This document shows positions 16,957-58,759 of a stretch of 62,942 nucleotides of DNA, piece after piece. This stretch comes from Halanaerobiales bacterium. Lineage in GTDB: Bacteria; Bacillota; Halanaerobiia; B1SED10-174. Made by a program: the position numbers and the translations under genes. Each line of letters opens with the position of its first letter. Position 1 is the first letter of the stretch. Under the pieces are notes generated by a model. That model was not told the origin of the DNA. It searched no databases and saw nothing but the letters and a program-made list of their open reading frames with translations. Location: the NCBI GenBank assembly GCA_003551905.1, contig PUNT01000277.1:1-62942 (forward strand), in the 5' to 3' direction.

Positions 16957-17118
16957 ACAATTATACCTCCTTTATTGAGACTTTAATAAAGGATATCCAT
17001 AAAATACTGTTATTTGCCAAAGGTCTGCTGCAGATTTGAATTGTAAACTCAAAACAGAGGAAACCTATCATCTTTGGCGAAAAAATGCTTAGAAGAGTTA
17101 ATTCTAGGAGGTTGAGGA

Positions 17119-17478
17119 ATGTCATCAGAAATTATTTTGTATTGTTTGAGGACTTGAAGGACCTGTCAGAAAACAAAAGCGTGGCTTTTGCAGGAGAAAA
17201 CAGATTTTACCGAAAGAGACCTGGTAAAGGAGCCTCTCCAGGAAGAGGAAGTTCATGCCCTGGCTGAGAAGTTGCAATTGACGGCAAAAGAACTAATTAA
17301 CATCAGGAGCAAAGCATTCAAAAATCTCGGATTGGGACTGGAAGAAATTGATGATGATCATGCTGCCAGGATAATCAGGGAAAATGGCCGTATAATGGTT
17401 CGGCCGGTTCTGGAGAGGGGAGATAGGGCTATAAAGGGTTTTAAAGAAGATATTTATAGAAACTTTCTTTCTTTATAG
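17119..17478 (+). CDS. Spx/ArsC-family thioredoxin-fold protein with an in-frame TGA (probable selenocysteine) at codon 13
   Basis: GGAGG, then 7 nt, then the ATG at 17119. 12 codons (MSSEIILYCLRT), then TGA at 17155, then RTCQKTKAWLLQEKTDFTERDL..., in the same frame as track ORF 17188..17478. It aligns to Spx [17 protein letters not shown] with the TGA on the first Cys of CxxC. Confidence 0.6.
17162..17194 (+). promoter_or_regulatory. SECIS-like stem-loop downstream of the in-frame TGA
   Basis: Lower stem CCTG/CAGG, internal loop, upper stem CAAAAGC/GCTTTTG (7 bp, perfect), apical loop GTG. The upper stem begins 16 nt after the TGA. Confidence 0.45.
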
Positions 17479-17512
17479 GGAGGGCTTTTCTTCAGTTTAA
17501 GGAGGTTTGGGA

Positions 17513-18706
17513 GTGAGTATAGGTCTTTTACACCTGAGTTCACCTTTAGGGGACATGGAGAATATAAGCTCCAGTACTGCCAGCTTTTTGCAGGGAATAG
17601 AAAGGAAGCTGGGAGAAAAACTCAAGGAAATCAGCCTTGGAAATTACCAATCTGTGGACCTACCCATCATACTTGTCAAGACCGGGGGGGTTGAAGGAAA
17701 GTTCAAAAAATTATACGAGCAATTACCTGAACCATATATAATCCTAGCTGGGAACACGCACAATGCCCTGGCTGCCTCCCTGGAAATACTGGCTTTTTTG
17801 CGACAGAGGGGTAAAAAAGCAGAAATTATTCATGGGGACATAGAGTATATTAACATCAGACTGAAGGTTCTGGCCAGAGTATTCCAGGTCAGAAAGAAGT
17901 TAACTGGAATCAGGTTGGGAGTCTTAGGTGAACCTTCGGACTGGTTAATTGCAAGTTCCATGGCGTATGAACTGGTGCGAGAGGTTTATGGTATTGAAGT
18001 TTTAGACATATCAATGGAAGAGCTATTCCAGGCAATAGAAGAGGAGCAAAGCCCACCGGTAGCATTCTTTAAGAGATTTTCCCGTAGGAGCATGGAGACA
18101 GAAACCTTAAAAGAAGCTCTCAGAATATACTGTGGCTTGCGCCGGGTATCTAGGGATTATGATCTGCAGGGATTAACTGTTCGCTGTTTTGACCTGCTTG
18201 GTAAGTACAGGAATACTGGCTGCCTGGGGATTGCCCTGCTGCCTGGGGAAGGGATTATTGCAGGTTGCGAAGGAGATCTATCAGCTCTGATCTCCATGGT
18301 TTTGCTGAATTATCTCACCGATAAACCCGCTTTCATGGCCAACCCTTCCAGCATTGATCTGGATAAAAATCAAGCTATTTTAGCCCACTGCACATTGCCT
18401 CTGGAACTGGCAGATAATTATTATCTGGATACTCACTTTGAATCCGGTGAGGGTGTCGGTGTTCGGGGTATAATACCAACAGGGGAGGGGACTGTTTTCC
18501 GTATGGGGGCTGACTGTAAAGGGTATTTTTTATCCCCTGTCAGTATACTGGAGAATACTGAAGAGAGCAATACCTGCCGGACCCAGGTCAGGGTTGAATT
18601 CCTGGAGGATGTAAAGTACTTCTTAAAGGAACCAGTGGGGAATCATCACATATTATGCCCTGGCAACCACAAGGCTCTGGTTGAAGAATTTTTTTACTGG
18701 TTTTAA
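17513..18706 (+). CDS. L-fucose/L-arabinose isomerase-like family protein
   Basis: About 397 aa. GCEGDLSALISMVLLNYLTDKPAFMANP resembles the sugar-isomerase C-terminal domain. The GTG at 17513 lies 7 nt after AAGGAGG. The ORF track starts at a TTG at 17507. Confidence 0.55.
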   Translation: MSIGLLHLSSPLGDMENISSSTASFLQGIERKLGEKLKEISLGNYQSVDLPIILVKTGGVEGKFKKLYEQLPEPYIILAGNTHNALAASLEILAFLRQRGKKAEIIHGDIEYINIRLKVLARVFQVRKKLTGIRLGVLGEPSDWLIASSMAYELVREVYGIEVLDISMEELFQAIEEEQSPPVAFFKRFSRRSMETETLKEALRIYCGLRRVSRDYDLQGLTVRCFDLLGKYRNTGCLGIALLPGEGIIAGCEGDLSALISMVLLNYLTDKPAFMANPSSIDLDKNQAILAHCTLPLELADNYYLDTHFESGEGVGVRGIIPTGEGTVFRMGADCKGYFLSPVSILENTEESNTCRTQVRVEFLEDVKYFLKEPVGNHHILCPGNHKALVEEFFYWF

Positions 18707-20106
18707 GTTCTTCTACGTTGGAAGATCTCTTTTTTCAAAGTTTGCCAGTCCTCCTGCAGGTGTTTCAATGCAGGAGGTTTTGTTTTTTCCTGTCCGTAGA
18801 ATTCTTGCAGGAAAGCATTGAGAATTCCATCTGTTTGCCGGCGAAATTTGGGAAGGTGTTCATGGATGTGGGGCTGGAAGTTTTGTGGGGTAATATGGGG
18901 TGGTTTTTTTGTTCCCTTTAAAGCCAGAGAAATGAGAAGAGCGTTGTAGATTTCCACCGCTGTTTTGGGGTTATTTAAAAAACGTCTAAGTCTCAAGCCT
19001 GTAAGTCTTCTATCCAGTGTTCCTCGCAGCCCATCCAGCCAGTCACTTCCCCAGTTCTTTAGTGCAGATATGGAAGCATAAGATTCCCGGGTTTCCTCAG
19101 TTATCTCAACTTTTTCATCACGGCTGGCTATGATGATCAGGTACATGATTGTGGCCAGGAATATGATGACACCAGCAATGGTTCCAATAAACATTAAGAA
19201 TTCAAAAATTAAAGGGATTGCTTCCAGAGCTGGCGTTATTTCCGGCACTTCTTCTGGCAGGTGAAGATCCAGATCCTGAAAGGTAACTTCTTCGTGTTCA
19301 AAGAATCGGGAAAAAATCCTGTAAAAAAGGTACATTGCATAACCCAGTATGAATCCAAAAAGCTGTAGCAGGAGCCGAATCAAATTCAGGAGGAAGAAGA
19401 AAGGAACTTGCAGTATTCTGGTCAGGCCAGGAATAAAAAATGCTGTTACAGCTGCTAGCAGAACCAGTAGAGGTGCCCCTATAAAGAACAGAGGCGACCA
19501 GATACTCATGGAGTTGCCTTCTCCCTGTTCAAACCCTCCTGAGTATTCTTTAATCCGTAGAAGGGATGTTGCAGCAATAGCTGCTGCAAACCACAGGATC
19601 ATGAGGGTGGTTAATTGGGGTAGTACTTCGTCCCATATCCCTGTCACATGGGCAGTGATTAGATAAATTGCTGCCCCCATTGTTCCCCATATGAGATGAC
19701 GCTGCATGCTATAATTGCTGGAAGGCTGGCTTCCCAGGCGTACGCCCAGAACCCAGAAGACAAGTCCCAGCAACATACGGTATGGCCATGGGAAAGGCAG
19801 GTAGATGCCAGATAGGCCGGGCAAAAACGTTGCAGCCAGGGGTAGCAGCAGGCTTACCAGGGAAAACAGAACAGTAACCGCATATCTTTTTATCAGAACA
19901 AGTTTATCCAGTAATTTACTGATCCAGGAGGCAATAAGGGAAGCTAAAAGGGCCAGGGCTATCAGGCAGGCGAGAAATGCCAGGACACCTTCTTCCTCAA
20001 CCAGGCTGCTAACCAGAAAAACCCAGGGAGCGAAGATTAGGATAATGCTTAGCCGAGCCAGGACGTCAGTTGCCCAGCTCAGCCAGGGTAATTTGGGGAA
20101 CTTCAT
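18703..20106 (-). CDS. Polytopic membrane protein with a DUF4129-like C-terminal domain (third gene of the MoxR operon)
   Basis: Many TM helices, with a soluble C-terminus. The ATG at 20106 is preceded by AGGAGGGGGG. The ORF track extends to 20199 inside the upstream gene. Confidence 0.55.
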   Translation of the reverse strand: MKFPKLPWLSWATDVLARLSIILIFAPWVFLVSSLVEEEGVLAFLACLIALALLASLIASWISKLLDKLVLIKRYAVTVLFSLVSLLLPLAATFLPGLSGIYLPFPWPYRMLLGLVFWVLGVRLGSQPSSNYSMQRHLIWGTMGAAIYLITAHVTGIWDEVLPQLTTLMILWFAAAIAATSLLRIKEYSGGFEQGEGNSMSIWSPLFFIGAPLLVLLAAVTAFFIPGLTRILQVPFFFLLNLIRLLLQLFGFILGYAMYLFYRIFSRFFEHEEVTFQDLDLHLPEEVPEITPALEAIPLIFEFLMFIGTIAGVIIFLATIMYLIIIASRDEKVEITEETRESYASISALKNWGSDWLDGLRGTLDRRLTGLRLRRFLNNPKTAVEIYNALLISLALKGTKKPPHITPQNFQPHIHEHLPKFRRQTDGILNAFLQEFYGQEKTKPPALKHLQEDWQTLKKEIFQRRRT

Positions 20107-21289
20107 CCCAGCCACCCCCCTCCTGCATGGCATATAAAGGGATAGAAGGGTCAATTTTTTGAGGAAGTTCCTGGCCAGTGTAGATGATGGAAACTGCAAA
20201 CCCCTGTTTTTTCTCTCGCCGGAGCTGTGAGAGAATCTTTTCAGTTATAATTGAGGTGATGAGTACAAGCTTTTTCGTAAAATACTCCTGCCGTCTGGCT
20301 TTTGCAATTATTTCCTCGCACCTGACCGTTGAAAAAGGCACCAGCCGGGCCATAGTTTCCAAACATCTTCGCAAATGGGCTGAGCCGGAGCCCATCTTCA
20401 CCGCTGCAGGATTTCTCATTCCCCTGATATATCCGGCAAAGAAGACAGCATATCGATATTTGCTTTCATTGCAGTGATGTATTATGGAGGCAGCAGTGAC
20501 AAGGTTTTTCTCCAGGAGGCTTCGGTCCAGGCTCCAGGAATGTTTTCCCGTGGAGATGTTGACAATAATTTTCAGGTCACTGACAAAAGAAGCCTCCAGG
20601 ACCCTGGTATGGAGTTTCCCGGTCCTTGCTGTTGCTTTCCATTCGATACGGGAGAAGGGATCGGAAGGGACATATTCCCTGATACCCCGGAAACGGGAAG
20701 GATCTTCAAAGATCCAGCTGAAGGTTCCCTGCTTGCCAAAAGGGGTAACTGCCAGGGGAAGCTTACCCTGAAGTTCCACGAGACGGGGATATACCAGGAG
20801 CCTTTCCTGAACATGGATAGTTTTTTTGCCTTCTGCGAACCCGAAGGGGTCAGCAATTCTGATGATCACAGGCCCGAAGAAGTATTCACCCCGGCCAGTG
20901 CAGATAATGTCAAAACGCTGGGAAATTCTTTCAAACCAGCCTACAGTTATTACCTGCTCATACAGGACATGCTTACCAATATCTTTTATCCCCCGGCCGG
21001 CATATTCAAGTTCTTTTGGACATTTAATTGATACTTTTAACCAGGGTAGAGGAAAAGGTTGATCATTTTCAATTTCCAGGTGCATGGTTACCCGGTCCCA
21101 GGGCTTTGCCCGGTGGGTTTGCAGGTAGATACGGCAGGAAACCCTGTTAAGGAGATGATGAGCCCAGAAAAGAGACACTACACCCAGGAGTACCAAAATA
21201 ATCCCGGGGATGAAAATAATTGGCTGTCCAAAGGGGAGGCCCACCAGGACAAGAAAAATACCCAGAAAGGTAATGCTTTTCGGTCTCAC
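20066..21289 (-). CDS. DUF58 domain-containing protein
   Basis: 407 aa. Two N-terminal TM helices and then a DUF58-like region (FRGIREYVPSDPFSRIEWKATARTGKLHTRV). 4-nt overlap with moxR. Confidence 0.85.
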   Translation of the reverse strand: MRPKSITFLGIFLVLVGLPFGQPIIFIPGIILVLLGVVSLFWAHHLLNRVSCRIYLQTHRAKPWDRVTMHLEIENDQPFPLPWLKVSIKCPKELEYAGRGIKDIGKHVLYEQVITVGWFERISQRFDIICTGRGEYFFGPVIIRIADPFGFAEGKKTIHVQERLLVYPRLVELQGKLPLAVTPFGKQGTFSWIFEDPSRFRGIREYVPSDPFSRIEWKATARTGKLHTRVLEASFVSDLKIIVNISTGKHSWSLDRSLLEKNLVTAASIIHHCNESKYRYAVFFAGYIRGMRNPAAVKMGSGSAHLRRCLETMARLVPFSTVRCEEIIAKARRQEYFTKKLVLITSIITEKILSQLRREKKQGFAVSIIYTGQELPQKIDPSIPLYAMQEGGGWDEVPQITLAELGN

Positions 21290-22402: not shown

Positions 22403-23254
22403 ATGCAGGAGGAGGGATCCAGCATGCAAGACCTGATTATAAAGCCTTATAGTGAGGAGGAGGCAGCTGCCCTGGCCCAGCATATCAATGAAAGCAGTCA
22501 TGGATGGCCTGGCAGTGGTTTAACCCATGGTATTGAGATGGATGAAGAGAGAGCCCGGGAATGGTTTGAATCTGTTAATTTTATAGGCTTATACATGGGC
22601 TGGGCCGGTGAACGTTTGCTGGGTTTTTCTTCCCTGACAGGTTCGGATAAGGATAGCAAAGTAGCCTATATACCTCTTCTCAACGTTCATCCTGATTATC
22701 AGGGCAAAGGTGTGGGACGAAAATTATTATGTAAATGTGTTGAAGAAGCTATTGAAAAAAAGTTTCGGCGCCTTGATCTCCATACCTGGGCGGCCAATCT
22801 GAAAGCTGTTCCCCTGTACAAGAAGACTGGTTTTTTCTGGAAGAAGGATACTTCGGTACATATGGTCAATTATTTGCCGCTGATTATGCAGAATTCTCTG
22901 GCCAGAGATTTTTTTGCTGAACATGACTGGTTTAAGTGTTTTGTCAGGGAATTGAAAATTGCCGAAGATGACGAAAAATGGCAGGGTATGCAGGTATATT
23001 CATACCGCTGGGAGGCAGGTGATGATTTTCTGGAGGTTAAAATAGATACAGAAGGAGAGGGTATAACCTCCATTTCCACTCCCCAGCTTTCCATTGATTG
23101 CGCAGTAAAAAATCAAAGATGCCCGGCAGGAGCCCCGAACTCTTTTGTTCTAAAAGTGTCAGCAGATGAAGATGGAGAAATGCTGATGAAAGCACAAGGA
23201 GAGGATGGTTTGGATCTGGTTGTAGAGGAAGGTTTGCACCTTTCTCATAGCTGA
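22403..23254 (+). CDS. GNAT family N-acetyltransferase with a C-terminal beta-rich extension
   Basis: The acetyl-CoA motif LLNVHPDYQGKGVGRKLL is present. The likely start is the ATG at 22424 (GGAGGAGGG 7 nt upstream). It ends at a TGA that is in frame with the next ORF. Confidence 0.8.
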   Translation: MQEEGSSMQDLIIKPYSEEEAAALAQHINESSHGWPGSGLTHGIEMDEERAREWFESVNFIGLYMGWAGERLLGFSSLTGSDKDSKVAYIPLLNVHPDYQGKGVGRKLLCKCVEEAIEKKFRRLDLHTWAANLKAVPLYKKTGFFWKKDTSVHMVNYLPLIMQNSLARDFFAEHDWFKCFVRELKIAEDDEKWQGMQVYSYRWEAGDDFLEVKIDTEGEGITSISTPQLSIDCAVKNQRCPAGAPNSFVLKVSADEDGEMLMKAQGEDGLDLVVEEGLHLSHS

Positions 23255-23287
23255 GAAAAAGAGATAGATTTTGCAGTAGAAGAAAAT

Positions 23288-25534
23288 ATGTCTCTAAAAG
23301 AGAAAGATGAACCAGCCCACAAAATTACCACCCAGATTTTCTGGCAGGGCAAACTTCTCAGTCTGGAAACTGGTGTAAGGGTTACAGAAGTTATTGCTGC
23401 CAGCTGGGGAGATATGATCCCGGATGTGCAGGTAGGGAAAGAGGGAATAGTTCATCTGAACATAGAAAACGCCATGGATAAAGAAATAAAGGCCAGCGTT
23501 CACATCCTTGATGCAGGAGGATTGCTGGCAGTACCTCTGGAAAAAGACGTTAATCTGCCAGCTCGGGGTAAGGGTGGTCTGGATATCAAACTGGAGGGCA
23601 GGAAAAGAGGATTCTATGAACTTAAATTAATGGTCTCATATAATTTTCGCGGTGAAAAACTGCAGGCCCGACCCCAGATCTTGCCTGTTTGTGTCAGGGG
23701 GCCAGGGGAAGTGATGCAAGGGGCAACCCAGGAGGAAGCTTTTCTAATCAATGACCAATTACTCCTCAAAGTGGCCTTAAAAGGAGGAGAAGGAAAGGTT
23801 TTTGAGAAGAATGGAAGAAAGAAAGAGATCCTGGAGATGGAAACGGATCTCATAGGACCTAAATACTACCCGCCGGTAATCTCTGAATTACATCTGAAGC
23901 CGGAGTTTGCCGGTTCTACACTGCTTCTGCATGGAGAACTGCCGGGGAGAGAGCGCTTGTATTTTTGCCGGGAAATTACCCTGGATGGCAACATCATATA
24001 TAATAGCTATACTGTAGCCAATGGTGGTACTACAGAAGAAAAACTGCTTATCCGCCTGGCTGGGACTGTTTCTCCTGAATATATTGACCGGGTGGCCATT
24101 CCCCTGGATGGACGGGTTATTATTGAGGATTTTGATCTGGATACATTCCCCGGTCTGGGTAATTTGCCCCGGGATGAAGAACGTTATACTGAAGATTGGT
24201 ATGCTCTAATGGGGGAAGATCTGGTCCTGGGCTCAGTAATACCTCCTGGTGAGGGCAAATATCAGGTAGGTGAATCGCAACTTTTGACCCGTTCCATACC
24301 ATTAGTGGTGCCTTCATGTACCGAGAAAAAGGTAACGGGGGTAACCTTTTATGCTGGACCGGGGGACTGGAGAACTGTGGCCCGTCTGGCAGCAACTCTG
24401 GGCAGGGTTAAAGGAGAGGAGTTGTGTGAATCAGGTGTCCTTCAGCCGGAATGGCAGGATGATATTCCAGTACTGCCTTATGGGAAGGGAACAGGACACC
24501 TTACCGTGTACTATCCCTGTGCCAAGTCCTTGTCAGGTAGAATAACTGTTGAATACCCCCCTGCTTTCAAGAAGGAGAAGGAAGATTTTAAAACTGTTTT
24601 CCAGGATAAAAAACCGTGGAAAAACCAGCTGGATTTTATAGGACCTGTTGCTGACAAAGGCATATATCCACTGCAAGTAAAGATTGAAGCCGGCAGCAAT
24701 ATCCGGAATCAAGAGCTTCCAGTGATCATTAGCGGGGGGAAAGGAGAAGTAAAAGTTGAGAAGGATGGTTCCCTCTGGAGGCTGGAAAATGGACTTCTTG
24801 AGCTCATGGTGGATGAGGATTTTGCCGGTTCAGGAGTTAGTCTCAAAATTGGGGATCTGGAAGTCCTGGAAAGCCCCTATCCTCAACCCGGCACCTATTA
24901 CTGGATAAATCCCTGGTATGGTGGCATAAATCCAATCCTTATCCCCTTGCCAAGTCGCACCTATCCAGGTTATCTATGGCAGGAAAAATTTGTGGGACAG
25001 GAAGTTTCAAGAACAGGCAGGTCAGGAAAACGCTGGCAGGGCTTGTTGCTGGATGTAGAGCCTCAAAGGCAGGAATTGTCAGGTCTAAAGCTCTCTCTGA
25101 GCTACCTGCTTATAGAGGATAGCCCTTTTTTAGCACTGGTTTATGGGATAAAAAATCATACAGATTACCGGCAAAAACTAAAAATTCAGTGGGGTATTTT
25201 CCTGGAACCGGGTATCTTTACTTCTTATAAAACAATTAAAGGAGATAAAATGATTGAGAGACTGCTGGAGCAGGAGGGAAGCTTTCTCATGGGCAAGGAG
25301 CTTTTCCACCTGCAGGGCAAGACGGATTTTCTGATTGTGACAGGGAAGGAAAATATCCTTTCTCTCGAGGAGAATCCCAATCCCTTCCGGCAGTTCCTGC
25401 AGGCTGGCCCTTTCACCGGGCTAGAGCTTGCTCCTGGAGAAGAAAAAGAGCTGGTTACCTACTTGATTTTACCCCAGCAGGTTAACAGTACCTCCATCTA
25501 TGGATGTTTGAATAATAAAAAGGGATTGTTCTAA
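23288..25534 (+). CDS. Large hypothetical protein (748 aa), no recognised domain
   Basis: A long ORF with normal composition. No clear SD before the ATG at 23288. It is in the same frame as the GNAT ORF, separated only by a TGA plus 11 sense codons. Confidence 0.65.
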   Translation: MSLKEKDEPAHKITTQIFWQGKLLSLETGVRVTEVIAASWGDMIPDVQVGKEGIVHLNIENAMDKEIKASVHILDAGGLLAVPLEKDVNLPARGKGGLDIKLEGRKRGFYELKLMVSYNFRGEKLQARPQILPVCVRGPGEVMQGATQEEAFLINDQLLLKVALKGGEGKVFEKNGRKKEILEMETDLIGPKYYPPVISELHLKPEFAGSTLLLHGELPGRERLYFCREITLDGNIIYNSYTVANGGTTEEKLLIRLAGTVSPEYIDRVAIPLDGRVIIEDFDLDTFPGLGNLPRDEERYTEDWYALMGEDLVLGSVIPPGEGKYQVGESQLLTRSIPLVVPSCTEKKVTGVTFYAGPGDWRTVARLAATLGRVKGEELCESGVLQPEWQDDIPVLPYGKGTGHLTVYYPCAKSLSGRITVEYPPAFKKEKEDFKTVFQDKKPWKNQLDFIGPVADKGIYPLQVKIEAGSNIRNQELPVIISGGKGEVKVEKDGSLWRLENGLLELMVDEDFAGSGVSLKIGDLEVLESPYPQPGTYYWINPWYGGINPILIPLPSRTYPGYLWQEKFVGQEVSRTGRSGKRWQGLLLDVEPQRQELSGLKLSLSYLLIEDSPFLALVYGIKNHTDYRQKLKIQWGIFLEPGIFTSYKTIKGDKMIERLLEQEGSFLMGKELFHLQGKTDFLIVTGKENILSLEENPNPFRQFLQAGPFTGLELAPGEEKELVTYLILPQQVNSTSIYGCLNNKKGLF

Positions 25535-43618: not shown

Positions 43619-44707
43619 GTGGCTATGAAGAAAGGACTTATTGGAGATATCTCCAGAGAAAAAGTAAAAAGCGTTGCCATAATTGGCCTGGCCAAAAATG
43701 CTGGCAAAACTGTTACCTTTAACACCATTGTTGAGGAGGCGGCACAAGAGGGCATTAGCCTGGGACTTTTATCCTATGGCCGGGATGGAGAATTGGTAGA
43801 TAGTGTGACACTGCAGGAAAAACCAAAGATATTTATTCCACCTGGTACCCTTTTCGTTACTGCCCAAAGAGCGCTGGAAAAAGGTTCAGTGCCTGCTGAA
43901 AAAGTATTAGAAACCGGTTATTTCTCAGTTATGGGTGAAGTTAACGTGTACCGGGCCCTGGACAGGGGAGGTTATGCAGAACTTGTAGGTATTAATTCTA
44001 CATCACGCCTGCAAAGGATAAAGGACTATCTGCAGGGGCGGGTTGATCTTATGCTGGTGGATGGGGCCCTGGATCGCCGGAGCTCAGCAGTGCCAACATT
44101 GACAGATGGAGTAATTGTGGCCACCGGGGCAGTTTTGGGCAATACAGAGGATTTTGTTATTTTCAGGACCGTTAACGAACTGCAGAAACTCACATTACCT
44201 CAGGTCACAGACTCCAGATTAAAGGAAATGGCCCGGGAGGCTATGGAAGCTGCCAGTATAACAATTATTAAAAGATCTGGAGAACTGGAAAAAGTGAAAG
44301 GACTTTCTACCTTCCAGGCCCAGGAGAAAATATTCAAAAACAGGTATATGTTGAATGATGCCTCAGCAATTATTTTTTCCGGCGCTCTCATTGACAGTTT
44401 TTTGGAGAAAGCGGTTTTTCCTGAGATGGTAAGGGATTGTAAGATTTTGGTCCGGGACGGCACCAGAGTGTTTCTTAACTGGCGTAACATGAATTTACTC
44501 AAAGAATATAATTTGCAGTTACTGGTAATCAATCCTGTGCAAGTTTTAGGTGTCACAGTGAACCCTACCAGTCCTTACAGTGCACCCCTTGACTCGCAAA
44601 AACTGGTACTGGGGCTCAAAAAAGCCCTGGTCAGGTTGCCGGTTTATGATCTCAAGGGGGAAGGATATCAGGCTAAAAGGGGGGCTTTTGTTGGAGGAAA
44701 AAATTAG
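43619..44707 (+). CDS. Hypothetical protein with an N-terminal P-loop-like motif
   Basis: 362 aa. VAIIGLAKNAGKT (GxxxxGKT) near the N-terminus and LMLVDGALDR as a possible Walker B. It lies directly upstream of kamD and overlaps it. Confidence 0.45.
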   Translation: MAMKKGLIGDISREKVKSVAIIGLAKNAGKTVTFNTIVEEAAQEGISLGLLSYGRDGELVDSVTLQEKPKIFIPPGTLFVTAQRALEKGSVPAEKVLETGYFSVMGEVNVYRALDRGGYAELVGINSTSRLQRIKDYLQGRVDLMLVDGALDRRSSAVPTLTDGVIVATGAVLGNTEDFVIFRTVNELQKLTLPQVTDSRLKEMAREAMEAASITIIKRSGELEKVKGLSTFQAQEKIFKNRYMLNDASAIIFSGALIDSFLEKAVFPEMVRDCKILVRDGTRVFLNWRNMNLLKEYNLQLLVINPVQVLGVTVNPTSPYSAPLDSQKLVLGLKKALVRLPVYDLKGEGYQAKRGAFVGGKN

Positions 44708-46256
44708 GATTTCCTGGGATGTGGTGGACAGGTGCCGACAGGCTGCCAGGAGCATAACTGATGACATCATGGTGCACATTCATGAGAATACCACCACTAC
44801 AGTGGAAAGAACGGTACTGCGGCTCATGGGGATAGAAGGAAGCGATGAGCAGGGAATTCCTCTGGCCAATGTAATGGTAGAACAGATTAACAACAGCGGG
44901 TTGCTTGGGGATGGTGTTGCCTTCTGGCTGGGTAATGCTATGCAGGCTACTGATGAAGGACCGCAAAAAATTGCTGAGCAGGTGGGGAGGGGTGAATTTG
45001 CTCTTCCTGATCTGCCCCGGCAGGAGCCTGCTATTGTCCGACAGAAAGTTGCTGAGGTGGCTGAGCGGGGTCTTGAGAGAATTAAAAAGAAACGGGCAGA
45101 GAGGGAGAGCCTGATGAAAGAGTTACCCCCCGGTCCTCAGCCCTGGCTCTATGTAATTGTTGCCACCGGTAATATTTATGAGGATGTAAAGCAGGCTCGG
45201 GCAGCTGTTGAAAAGGGAGCTGATATTATAGCTGTAATCCGCTCAACGGCCCAGAGTCTTTTGGATTATGTGCCCTATGGTCCTACAACAGAGGGTTTTG
45301 GGGGAACCTATGCTACTCAGGAGAATTTTCGTATAATGCGGGAAGCCCTGGATGATGGTGGCCGGGAAGCAGGCCGTTACATTCAGCTGGTTAATTATTC
45401 TTCCGGTTTGTGCATGCCGGAGATAGCTGCCATGGGTGCTGTGGAGAGGCTGGATATGATGTTGAATGACTCCATGTACGGCATATTGTTTCGGGACATC
45501 AATATGAAAAGGACTTTTATTGATCAACATTTTTCACGTATGATCAATGCTGTGGCTGGAATAACCATCAACACCGGTGAAGATAATTATCTAACCACAA
45601 CTGATGCTTTGGATGAGGCTCACACCGTTCTGGCTTCCCAGTTTATCAATGAATCTTTAGGTTTCAAATCCGGTTTAAAAACACAGCAAATGGGATTGGG
45701 ACATGCCTTTGAGATTGATCCAGACCTGGAGGATGGTTTTCTCTTTGAGATTGCCCAGGCCCAGTTGATTCGGCAGATTTTTCCCCACGCTCCTATAAAA
45801 TATATGCCACCTACCAAGTACATTACCGGTGATATTTTTCGGGCCCACCTCATCAATGGTATGTTTAACCTGGCCGGAGTCATGACCGGCCAGGGCATTC
45901 AGCTTCTGGGCATGCTCACAGAAGCGATCCATACGCCTTTTGTTCAGGACCGGGCCCTGAGTATTGAGAATGCCAGGTATATTTTTAATAATGCCCGGGA
46001 CCTGCAGGATGAGATTATGTTCGTGCCCTACGGTCGTATACAGCAGCGAGCTGATGAGGTCCTGTTAAAAGCTGCTTCCATGCTGGAATCTATAACAGAA
46101 AAGGGTCTCATGCAGGCTATCGAAGATGGTATGTTTGCTAATATTTCTCGTCCCCAGGAAGGTGGAAAAGGCCTGGATGGTTTAGTCAAGAAAGGAGAAG
46201 AATATTATAATCCGTTCAGTGATATGTTTAAAGAGGAGCTGAGCATCCATGAATGA
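44691..46256 (+). CDS. kamD: Lysine 5,6-aminomutase alpha subunit
   Basis: HENTTTTVERTVLRLMGIEG and the overall length fit KamD. A TTG at 44688/44691 lies 6 nt after a G-run. The ORF track starts at 44580, inside the upstream gene. Confidence 0.8.
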   Translation: MEEKIRISWDVVDRCRQAARSITDDIMVHIHENTTTTVERTVLRLMGIEGSDEQGIPLANVMVEQINNSGLLGDGVAFWLGNAMQATDEGPQKIAEQVGRGEFALPDLPRQEPAIVRQKVAEVAERGLERIKKKRAERESLMKELPPGPQPWLYVIVATGNIYEDVKQARAAVEKGADIIAVIRSTAQSLLDYVPYGPTTEGFGGTYATQENFRIMREALDDGGREAGRYIQLVNYSSGLCMPEIAAMGAVERLDMMLNDSMYGILFRDINMKRTFIDQHFSRMINAVAGITINTGEDNYLTTTDALDEAHTVLASQFINESLGFKSGLKTQQMGLGHAFEIDPDLEDGFLFEIAQAQLIRQIFPHAPIKYMPPTKYITGDIFRAHLINGMFNLAGVMTGQGIQLLGMLTEAIHTPFVQDRALSIENARYIFNNARDLQDEIMFVPYGRIQQRADEVLLKAASMLESITEKGLMQAIEDGMFANISRPQEGGKGLDGLVKKGEEYYNPFSDMFKEELSIHE

Positions 46257-48346: not shown

Positions 48347-49528
48347 GTGGATAAGGTTGTTATTGTTTCTGCTGTTCGAACAGCAATAGGCACCTATGGA
48401 GGTAGTCTTACTGATTTTCCTGCCTGGAAACTGGGGCAGATGGTCATTGCTGAAGCCATAAAAAGAGCAGGCCTGGAAAAGGATGATATTGATGAAGTAA
48501 TTATGGGCAATATTCTCCAGGCTGGACAGGGCATGCATCCCGCACGGCAGGCCGCTCTTGGGGCTGGCTTGCCGGTAGAAGTGCCAGTCATGACCGTCAA
48601 TAAGGTTTGCGGATCCGGTCTCAAAGCTGTGGTACTGGGTGCTCAGGCAATAAAACTGGGTGATGCAGATGTGGTAGTGGCAGGTGGTATGGAGAGTATG
48701 AGCCAGGCCCCCTATTATCTACTCCAGGCTCGCTGGGGTTACCGCATGGGTCACGGCACCCTTGAGGATGGCATGATCAAGGATGGGCTGTGGTGTTCAC
48801 TGATTGACCAGCATATGGGCAGCACAGCTGAAGCCATAGCAGAAAAATATAATATTTTCAGGGAGGAGCAGGATCGTTTTGCCCTGGAAAGCCAGGAGAG
48901 AGCTCAGAAAGCTATCCAGGAAGAATGGTATAAAGAGGAGATAGTGGCAGTTGAAGTCCCTCAACGTAAAAAGGATCCCTTAATTTTTGCAGTTGATGAG
49001 CATCCCCGGGCTGGATTGTCCCTGGAGAAACTGGGGAAAATGAAGCCAGCCTTCAAAAAAGATGGGACAGTAACTCCCGGTAACGCTTCTGGTATTAATG
49101 ATGGAGCGGCAGCCCTGGTAATAATGAAGGAATCCCGGGCCAGAGAATTGGGCATAACTCCCATGGCAACCCTGGAGGGTTATGCTTCAGCAGGTGTTGA
49201 GCCCAGATATATGGGTATGGGGCCTGTGCCAGCGGTGCAGAAAGTTCTGCAAAAGACTGGCTATCAACTTGCGGATATTGACCTCATTGAAGCCAATGAA
49301 GCATTTGCTGTCCAGAGTCTGGCAGTGATAAAGGAGCTGGGATTGGATCCGGCAGTTACCAACGTAGGAGGAGGAGCCATAGCTTTAGGGCACCCCATTG
49401 GAGCCAGCGGAGCCCGGATTCTCATAACCTTGCTCCATCACCTTAAGAGAACTGATAAGAAGAGAGGTCTGGCAACCCTGTGTATTGGGGGAGGTATGGG
49501 TATTGCTGCCATAGTGAATAGGGAGTAG
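48347..49528 (+). CDS. Acetyl-CoA C-acetyltransferase (thiolase II)
   Basis: 393 aa. [12 protein letters not shown] (active-site Cys), [28 protein letters not shown] and CIGGGMG. Confidence 0.95.
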
Positions 49529-56641: not shown

Positions 56642-58759
56642 GTGAGAAGACTGAAAAAACGATATGAAGAGAAAAAGGAAAAGCAGCTTTTAGATTTTAC
56701 TATGAATCATGACAAAGAACAGCTTACCACCAATCAGGGAGTTTCTGTTTCCCACACTGATGATTCACTCAAGGCCGGGGACCGGGGCCCCACACTGATG
56801 GAGGATTTCCATTTTCGGGAGAAATTAACTCACTTCGATCATGAGCGCATTCCTGAACGTGTTGTTCATGCCCGGGGCTTTGGTGCCCATGGTTATTTTC
56901 AGGTCTATGAATCCATGGAAGAATACACCATGGCTAAATTCCTACAGGACCCTGCAGTTAAAACTCCTGTCTTTGTCCGTTTTTCCACCGTGGTAGGTTC
57001 CCGGGGGTCAGCAGATACGGTACGGGATGTTCGTGGTTTTGCAACTAAATTTTATACCCAGGATGGAAACTATGATCTGGTTGCCAATAACATGCCTGTC
57101 TTCTTTATTCAGGATGCCATCAAATTTCCGGATATTGTCCATGCCATAAAACCTGAACCGCAGAACGAAATTCCGCAAGCATCAGCAGCTCACGACACTT
57201 TCTGGGATTTTGTAGTTAATACGCCTGAGATTGCCCACATGGTAATGTGGTTGCTTTCTGACAGGGCTATCCCTCGCAGTTATCGTATGATGGAGGGTTT
57301 TGGCGTTAATACTTTCCGCTTCATCAACAAGGAAGGTAAAGCTTGTTTTGTCAAGTTCCACTGGAAACCTTTATTAGGTGTGCATTCCCTGGTTTGGGAT
57401 GAAGCCCAGAAGCTGGCAGGAAAAGATCCTGACTATAATAGACGGGATCTCTGGGATGCCATAAACATGGGGGATTACCCTGAGTATGAATTTGGTGTGC
57501 AGATTTTAGAAGAGGAGGACGAGTTCAAGTTTGATTTTGATATTCTGGATGCTACCAAGTTCTGGCCGGAAGAAGATATACCGGTGAAAATAATCGGTAA
57601 AATGACCTTGAATCGCAACGTGGATAATTTCTTTGCTGAAACAGAGCAGGTTGCTTTCCATCCCGGCAATATGGTGCCGGGCATTGATTTTACCAATGAC
57701 CCCCTGCTTCAGGGACGGCTTTTTTCCTATCTAGACACCCAGCTCATCAGGTTGGGTGGGCCCAATTTCCATGAGATCCCCATTAACCGACCAGTTATTC
57801 CCATTCACAATAATCAGCGAGATGGCTATCACCGCATGACCATTGACCGGGGTACAGTGAGCTACTCACCCAATTCAATTCAGGACAATGCACCGGAGCC
57901 CTTACCGGAGCAGGGTTATACCCATCATGCTGAAAAGGTGGAAGGCTGGAAGGTGCGGGCACGCAGTGAAAGCTTCAATGATCACTACAGCCAGGCTGCA
58001 CTGTTTTGGAACAGTATGTCCAGTGCAGAAAGACAGCATATTGTAGAGGCTTTCCATTTTGAGGTGGGCAACGTTAAGGACCAGGATATCAGGCAGCGTG
58101 TTGTGGACATGTTTAACAATGTAGATGGAGAACTGGCCATTCAGATAGCTGAGGGGATTGGTGTAGAGCCACCCAAAACATTCGGAGGTAGTGGGGTAAC
58201 AGCATCTTCGCCTGCTGTCAGCCAGGAGAATACCATTATGGTACCACAAACCAGGAAAGTTGCCATTCTGCTGGAGGAAGGGTTTAATTTCAATGAAACA
58301 ATGCAGGTTATGGATGTTTTGAAAAAAGAGCGTGTTCATACGGAGATTGTCAGCAAAAATCTTGGTATGCTCAAGAGTAAAGAAGGTCAGGAGCTGAATG
58401 TGGGAAAAAACTACTTCACAACCGCGTCTATAATGTATGATGCAGTTTACATCCCCGGTGGACTGCAAAATGTGGAAACACTGAAAACCCAGGGCGATGC
58501 TCTGCATTTTGTCAACGAAGCATTTAAACATGCCAAGGCTCTTGGGGCCAGTAATGAAGGTGTGGATCTATTATTGGCTTCAGAAATACAGGGTATTGAA
58601 ATGGCCGGTAAGGATGATGATAGGGTTGTTACAGATTTAGGTGTTGTGACCGTGGAAAATTCCAAGGATTTCAGGGAGTTCAGCAAGAAATTTATTGCTG
58701 CAATAGCCCAGCACCGTCATTGGATGAGACAACCCAAAAAAGAGATGGTACCTGCTTAG
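56642..58759 (+). CDS. katE: Large-subunit (HPII-type) catalase with a C-terminal DJ-1/PfpI-like domain
   Basis: 705 aa. [20 protein letters not shown](V)GSRGSADT, the proximal-Tyr region RLFSYLDTQ and a roughly 150-aa C-terminal extension. The start is uncertain (GTG 56642 or ATG 56702). Confidence 0.9.

Follow-up and report, generated by a model that had tools for sequence, protein, structure and literature searches.

The DNA at positions 17119-17478 of the window, by which we mean the whole stretch of 62,942 nt that was analysed, is most probably a selenocysteine (Sec)-encoding gene that carries a functional SECIS element, a reading to which we assign a probability of about 0.88. With the same confidence, we regard the locus as one intact gene for a predicted 119-residue selenoprotein of the ArsC/Spx fold, with U13-R-T-C16 as its probable redox centre. 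An earlier note on this DNA had proposed a UxxC selenoprotein of the Spx/ArsC family. This proposal is supported by the column in which the TGA codon falls, by in-frame coding upstream of it, by a hairpin whose bases are frozen among relatives and by the fold of the protein, with the qualification that 'Spx' is to be read as fold and nearest neighbour.

A Sec/Cys pair at a CxxC redox motif is a classic pattern. In the mechanism we propose, the ribosome would start at ATG 17119 and reach the UGA at 17155, where the mRNA hairpin at 17162-17194, acting as a bacterial SECIS, would recruit SelB carrying Sec-tRNA(Sec), and Sec would be inserted. Insertion would place a redox centre, U13-R-T-C16, at the N-terminal end of helix 1, and the protein would most likely serve as a selenol/thiol oxidoreductase that cycles via a U13-C16 selenenylsulfide. 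Because the gene is intact and the putative SECIS is maintained, we infer that the organism carries out SelB-dependent decoding of UGA. Related genomes in which a second selenoprotein, a Sec-peroxiredoxin, is encoded beside the orthologue lend this reading indirect support.

The layout that the earlier note had described (a GGAGG, an ATG at 17119, 12 codons, a TGA at 17155..17157 and an open frame to 17478) matches the sequence in every detail (Table 1). Translation from this ATG gives MSSEIILYCLRT-U-RTCQKTKAWLL..., and after the TGA the frame continues uninterrupted as RTCQKTKAWLLQEK... up to the TAG at 17476-17478; Cys16, the partner of U13, is encoded by the TGT at 17164-17166. SD-like GGAGG or GGGG sequences also lie 5′ of the starts in family members. 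As the earlier note had also claimed, the TTG at 17188 is the only start available to conventional ORF calling, and the resulting 96-aa ORF is an artefact, being the real gene minus its head.

Table 1. Features at and next to the candidate selenoprotein gene (window coordinates).
Feature	Position	Strand	Basis or remark
Shine-Dalgarno (SD) AGGAGG	17106..17111	+	read from sequence; 7 nt 5′ of ATG
Predicted full selenoprotein CDS, 119 codons including Sec13, stop TAG 17476-17478	17119..17478	+	translation and domain matches
N-terminal 12 codons (MSSEIILYCLRT), β-strand 1 including Cys9 (17143-17145)	17119..17154	+	dropped by conventional ORF calling
TGA, predicted U13, first residue of U-R-T-C redox motif	17155..17157	+	same column as Cys in homologues
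96-aa ORF with TTG start, sole conventional ORF at the locus	17188..17478	+	ORF calling
SECIS-type hairpin inside the CDS	17162..17194	+	comparative pairing and frozen codons
Lower stem CCUG/CAGG	17162-65 / 17191-94	+	sequence
Upper stem CAAAAGC/GCUUUUG	17174-80 / 17184-90	+	sequence
Apical loop GUG	17181-83	+	23 nt between TGA and loop
Downstream 399-aa gene	17507..18706	+	ORF; 28-nt gap after selenoprotein gene

A word-indexed protein search found a single database entry for the window gene, P0001, which is the identical shortened product of 96 aa. The contig from which P0001 derives (L001) is ~99.8% identical to the window and represents essentially the same strain, and it is therefore uninformative as to the persistence of the TGA. 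A near-identical contig occurs in the reads of SRR490150. Among genuine stops in the window TGA is the commonest, closing 16 of the 38 long ORFs, which establishes that the genetic code is standard.

More distant relatives were collected by a HMMER search with the segment that follows the TGA, which returned 243 matches. Many of the nearest are 82-102 aa long and begin just past the Sec column ('MTCRRAKSWL', 'MAWLRDHQ...'), a few have CxxC at the motif, and two full-length proteins have W at the Sec column (FFCINT-W-QTCQKAKAWL and FYCFPT-W-RTCRRAKAWL). The DNA of both of these proteins has TGA as the codon at this column, and the W is thus an artefact of short contigs having been translated with a TGA=Trp code. 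Stored proteins with W in this position are P0002, P0003, P0155 and P0157, with the DNA carrying TGA at L002 57-59 and L004 49-51. Most other stored members of the clade are unnamed, N-truncated ORFs of 82-102 aa in public protein sets.

We also scanned a genome collection with the pattern TC[QRT][KR][AT]KAWL, whose position downstream of the Sec column keeps it free of bias as to the residue found there; the counts cover the best 80 of 328 genome matches, all from species-level genomes. The earlier note had proposed a comparison of orthologues for Cys or an in-frame TGA. TGA occupies the identical column, two codons before 'TC', in 70 of these best 80 of 328 loci, and TGT or TGC is found in the other 10; TGA is likewise present in three metagenome contigs (L002-L004). 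In all, 73 distinct Sec-type orthologues share the same gene architecture. The TGA-type relatives have 30-45% protein identity to the window protein, with 45% for the closest orthologue in the genome collection (best 80 of 328).

Among the best 80 of 328 matches, the TGA-type genomes are mostly from Syntrophomonadaceae, Pelotomaculum, Desulfitobacteriia, Peptococcaceae and Desulfotomaculaceae MAGs, with single representatives from Atribacteria, Acidobacteriota, Sumerlaeota, Solirubrobacterales and Desulfovibrionaceae. The Cys-type genomes in the same set are from Listeria, Rossellomorea, Natronobacillus, Alicyclobacillaceae, Collinsella, Bulleidia and one Syntrophomonas. The Syntrophomonas version (TGC; L014 3037-3090) is nested among Sec-type relatives, and its hairpin codons have decayed to GCA AAA GCA TGG TTG GTG, a change that is consistent with relaxed RNA constraint after a switch from Sec to Cys.

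The coding sequence before the TGA is conserved as well. An in-frame segment of the form M-x(3-8)-F-Y-C-x-P/x-T is kept 5′ of the TGA in every gene, and of the 73 distinct Sec-type genes, 70 keep the F at position -6, 65 the Y at -5 and 72 the C at -4. The synonymous codons for these residues (TTT/TTC, TAC/TAT and TGT/TGC) occur at background frequencies. Conservation of the residues together with free synonymous variation indicates that translation runs in one frame through this segment and the part that follows the TGA, the TGA itself being read through. The C of this segment, which lies four residues before Sec and corresponds to Cys9 of the window protein, is thus a third Cys common to nearly all Sec-type genes; in Cys-type homologues the equivalent column varies between C, W, S and G. 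Cys9 may act as a resolving residue.

For the RNA, the earlier note had drawn a hairpin of the form CCTG / CAAAAGC-GTG-GCTTTTG / CAGG at 17162..17194 and attributed bacterial SECIS geometry to it. Both points held on examination: the hairpin is present as drawn, and its GUG loop, 7-bp upper stem, 23-nt spacing and energy of -8.8 kcal/mol fall within the published bSECIS constraints quoted in PMC13188914, while synonymous sites from +6 to +11 are frozen across the family. When the single sequence 17150-17215 is folded, the minimum free energy is -10.1 kcal/mol, with z = 0.17 versus dinucleotide shuffles; an alternative upper pairing in the window is slightly more stable, and the upper stem has a pairing probability of ~0.15. 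Given this z value, the significance of the hairpin comes only from comparative data and not from thermodynamics.

The comparative data consist chiefly of codon usage. Among the 73 distinct Sec-type genes, the sequence GCG AAA GCG TGG CTT TCG fills codons +6 to +11, counted from the TGA, almost without exception. The background, taken from the same genes outside this stretch, has GCG for 18% of Ala, CTT for 17% of Leu and TCG for 8% of Ser. A G-test for each codon gave p values of 7e-34 for Ala +6, 2e-6 for Lys +7, 1e-42 for Ala +8, 7e-47 for Leu +10 and 7e-30 for Ser +11. Flanking codons are at background, including Lys +5, those from +12 onward, those from -8 to -3, and Cys +3, for which TGT is used 38 times and TGC 35 times. 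No such freezing occurs in the ten Cys-type homologues, where a mixture of codons spells out the same K-A-W-L peptide.

The frozen bases fold as a 7-bp hairpin, CGAAAGC-GUG-GCUUUCG. In an ungapped alignment of 71 sequences its seven upper-stem pairs are formed in 90.7% of cells, and this proportion drops to 22-57% when the 3′ partner is slid by one to three columns. At the second pair, A:U takes the place of G:C in the window (CAAAAGC-GUG-GCUUUUG) and in L006 and L009, and L065 carries a G·U intermediate; covariation amounts to one pair in three sequences. In the window, the compensatory double change replaced Ala by Thr and Ser by Leu in the protein, a cost which implies that pairing outranked the peptide. 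The lower stem is formed in many members by ACCUG, from the T-C codons, with a downstream CAGGU, and in the window it is found in a shifted register.

RNAalifold analysis of the 71-sequence alignment did not recover the frozen-codon hairpin and gave a weak alternative structure of -4.1 kcal/mol with no covariation. We set this structure aside, as the pair counts and the frozen codons back the hairpin at 17174-17190. Searches of Rfam at gathering and permissive thresholds found no relevant family for the element. Six Sec-type genes (L011, L013, L019, L050, L054 and L055) carry a different hairpin, (A)GCCAAG-GCN-(C/U)UGGCU, formed from codons for the same A-K-A-W-L, and by its sequence it is a putative second SECIS solution for the same peptide.

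The earlier note had offered as its alternative that an ordinary CxxC ArsC/Spx-family gene recently suffered a TGT- or TGC-to-TGA nonsense mutation and is now a pseudogene. A single base separates TGA from either Cys codon, the 63-kb window holds no selA, selB, selD or tRNA-Sec, and the sole near-identical sequence comes from essentially the same strain. However, the same TGA recurs in 70 species-level genomes of several phyla (best 80 of 328), the ORF is intact on both sides of it, the SD sequence and start codon are kept, and the window has retained its hairpin through a double change that cost two amino acids. The conservation of the TGA, the in-frame upstream segment and the standard code together lead us to exclude reassignment of the code as well as a recent nonsense mutation; the pseudogene alternative is rejected as extremely unlikely.

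It is scarcely credible that the UGA is decoded in another way, through near-cognate read-through as Trp or a reassigned code, with the hairpin as a stimulator of read-through or a by-product of the K-A-W-L peptide. Although public translations of four proteins do show W at the column, and the A-K-A-W-L codons are partly self-complementary, as is also seen in some Cys-type genes, every homologue that lacks TGA has Cys there, inside a CxxC redox motif that Trp would destroy. Cys-type genes, moreover, encode the same peptide with no codon freezing, and TGA is an ordinary stop for the long ORFs of the window. Adjoining peroxiredoxin genes in the same genomes also have TGA at the codon for the peroxidatic Cys, and these belong to an established selenoprotein family (PMC1794560).

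The conceptual protein, with U replaced by C, matches the Pfam ArsC family PF03960 with 53.4 bits (cutoff 24). Its score against TIGR01617, 'Spx/MgsR family' ('arsC_related'), is 70.7, versus a curated cutoff of 75.05, and five typical Sec-type relatives score above this cutoff, at 83.6-99.6. The best NCBIfam score of the window protein is with the Spx model NF002459 (75.7 bits, below the cutoff of 123). Another Spx model, NF009210, gives 62.8 (below 159), and NF041106, 'ArsC family (seleno)protein', gives 30.6 (below 85); those Sec-type relatives that match NF041106 score 30-34 bits, also below cutoff. Within its family, the window protein diverges the most.

The earlier note had aligned the protein to Spx by eye and placed the TGA on the first Cys of CxxC. 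HMMER comparison with PDB sequences agrees, since the alignment of the window protein with B. subtilis Spx is gapless over 113 residues (E 2e-15), and U13 falls on C10 and C16 on C13 of Spx. An AF2 model of the family member P0155 has a pLDDT of 94 and a TM score of 0.90 to Spx 3GFK; its fit to ArsC-family proteins of unknown function is nearly as good, and the TM score to the ArsC fold is about 0.84. The prediction that the window protein adopts an ArsC/Spx thioredoxin-like fold with a helical insert is supported by this model.

Whether the protein might be a true Spx-type regulator, in which a selenenylsulfide switch would control binding to the RNA polymerase α-CTD and σA and thereby an oxidative-stress regulon, deserves consideration, because its nearest neighbours in both sequence and structure are Spx proteins. 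The UxxC lies at the position of C10xxC13 in Spx, the RP(I/L/V) motif is kept, the window protein has equivalents of R60 and K62, and the TIGR01617 model is passed by typical members of the family. The contacts of Spx to the α-CTD and σA are made by G52, R47, T53, D54, Y80, a basic α-6 patch and helix α-7 (PMC8501982). Of these, however, G52 is replaced by T in the window and by T, S, E or K in the family, R47 is variable, T53 is changed to V, I or L, D54 to K or R, and Y80 to A. The α-6 patch is mostly acidic instead of basic, helix α-7 (residues 119-131, the YjbH/ClpXP region) is absent, and scores against Spx models are 75-95 bits, under cutoffs of 123-159. A place in an operon behind a peroxiredoxin is also more in keeping with an enzyme partner than with a global regulator. 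The only Spx features that survive are the UxxC and RP(I/L/V) motifs, both of which are common across the ArsC superfamily. We consider it very unlikely that the protein is such a regulator; judged from its residues, 'Spx' names its fold and nearest sequence neighbour and carries no claim of a regulatory role.

The genes that accompany Sec-type relatives offer a clue to function. At ~22 Sec-type loci an AhpC/TSA peroxiredoxin gene lies directly upstream on the same strand, with TGA as the codon for its peroxidatic Cys (FYPGDFTFV-U-PTEL), and ends about 40-160 nt before the TGA of the ArsC/Spx-like gene. These Sec-peroxiredoxin genes carry an invariant hairpin of their own, UUGGCG-UCAGUUGC-CGCCAG. 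Tandem selenoprotein genes of this kind occur in L008, L010, L016, L020, L023 and L046 (TGA at locus positions 2529, 2541, 467, 2518, 2541 and 2516 respectively) and at ~16 further loci. Other oxidative-stress genes found nearby encode rubrerythrin (L002 and L003), a flavodiiron protein (8 loci) and a Fur-family regulator (6 loci). As these neighbours point to defence against peroxide or oxygen, the Sec-type proteins probably have a role in peroxide or oxidative-stress defence, and plausibly take part in recycling of, or a redox relay with, a peroxiredoxin. A more specific proposal, which we put forward only tentatively and consider rather unlikely to be correct in full, is that the protein serves as the dedicated reductant of Sec-peroxiredoxin via the U13-C16 selenenylsulfide, forming a two-selenoprotein relay in strict anaerobes, and that the window gene has moved away from its peroxiredoxin.

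A scan of the window revealed no peroxiredoxin gene, either beside the gene or elsewhere in the window, and no convincing second TGA-interrupted gene. For the window gene, the functional link is therefore drawn from homology only. Its neighbours are an ABC_ATPase, a PadR gene, a gene of unknown kind and MoxR/DUF58, with the PF09818 ABC-class ATPase gene lying upstream and transcribed divergently. No terminator-like site is present in the 28-nt gap that separates the gene from the downstream 399-aa gene; the two are probably co-transcribed, and we infer that they may belong to the same functional unit. The 399-aa protein has no Pfam match, and its NCBIfam match to sulfoquinovose isomerase is weak (52.8 bits vs a cutoff of 700). 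Downstream, the region 17507-20199 holds the 399-aa (+) and a 498-aa (-) ORF, neither with a Pfam family, and the pairing of the first with the selenoprotein gene is kept in L001.

Elsewhere the window carries gatB, dnaE, pfk, pyk, lysine 5,6-aminomutase (44580-46256) and thiolase (48347-49528), and it looks like the chromosome of a member of the anaerobic Bacillota. Its GatA and GatB share only 55-66% identity with their counterparts at Syntrophomonadaceae MAG loci. Positions 56642-58759 encode a catalase of the large-subunit type whose C-terminal domain is DJ-1/PfpI-like, in a genome that otherwise resembles that of an anaerobic fermenter. At 22403-25534, a GNAT acetyltransferase ORF (22403-23254) that ends in TGA is in frame with a 748-aa ORF (23288-25534) that has no family match, and the gap between them comprises the TGA and 11 stop-free codons. 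No redox motif is found at this TGA, and the shared frame is probably a coincidence.

Several known groups of proteins stand close to the window protein. B. subtilis Spx (PDB 1Z3E, 3GFK and 7F75) shares with it the fold, the position of the redox motif and the RP(I/L/V) motif, but has Cys10 where the window protein is predicted to have Sec, makes α-CTD and σA contacts that are not kept here, and extends by the last ~13-15 residues (helix α-7, the YjbH/ClpXP determinant) that are missing in the family. Glutaredoxin-coupled ArsC, represented by E. coli R773 ArsC and TIGR00014, is alike in fold (TM about 0.84) and in its Pfam ArsC domain, but uses a single catalytic Cys12 context, whereas the window protein has UxxC. 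An arsenate reductase reading was rejected, as the window protein scores 34.4 against TIGR00014 (cutoff 106) and no ars genes lie near the window gene. The Cys homologues of Listeria, Rossellomorea, Natronobacillus, Collinsella and others (FY.YPKC.TCRKAKAWL; TIGR01617) are of the same length class, with ~30-34% identity and the same motif; they differ in their neighbours, in having Cys for Sec and in lacking both the frozen codons and the hairpin downstream of the motif. The Listeria/Rossellomorea-type homologues presumably resemble B. subtilis YusI.

Standard annotation reduces the window gene to a headless 96-residue fragment, and the same error runs throughout its relatives in public protein sets. 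With this clade recognised, the bacterial selenoproteome gains a family that is widespread and occurs chiefly in syntrophic and sulfate-reducing Bacillota. Its unusually sharp SECIS consensus should be useful for training predictors of selenoproteins and SECIS elements. The operon link to Sec-peroxiredoxin provides a testable functional clue for a branch of the ArsC/Spx fold whose Cys homologues have no known function. Cys/Sec pairs are already established for thioredoxin-fold proteins with a UxxC motif, ArsC-like ones among them, and these findings therefore change no concept.

UxxC ArsC/Spx-like selenoproteins have indeed featured in selenoproteome surveys since 2006-2008 (PMC1794560, PMC2398784). 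ArsC-like selenoproteins were predicted in bacterial genomes (PMC1794560), 42 sequences from marine metagenomes were described as 'Arsenate reductase 2, cd03032, UxxC' (PMC2398784), and recent catalogues list an 'Arsenate reductase-like protein, UxxC' that is tied to NCBIfam NF041106 (PMC9312934, PMC13188914). The statement in the earlier note that such proteins had been reported in surveys is therefore correct (PMC1794560, PMC2398784, PMC9312934, PMC13188914). TIGR01617 and cd03032 are both missing from the 2026 selenoprotein catalogue. The catalogued proteins belong to the same superfamily as the window protein, have Sec as the first residue of UxxC and are likewise computational predictions. 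They differ in that they are tied to NF041106, against which the window clade scores 30-34, whereas this clade falls in or next to TIGR01617; their sources are marine or deltaproteobacterial, whereas the window clade is found mainly in anaerobic Bacillota (Syntrophomonadaceae, Pelotomaculum and Desulfitobacteriia). By sequence comparison, the kind of selenoprotein is known, and the window clade seems to form a branch of it that is not yet catalogued, with the window gene as a divergent member.
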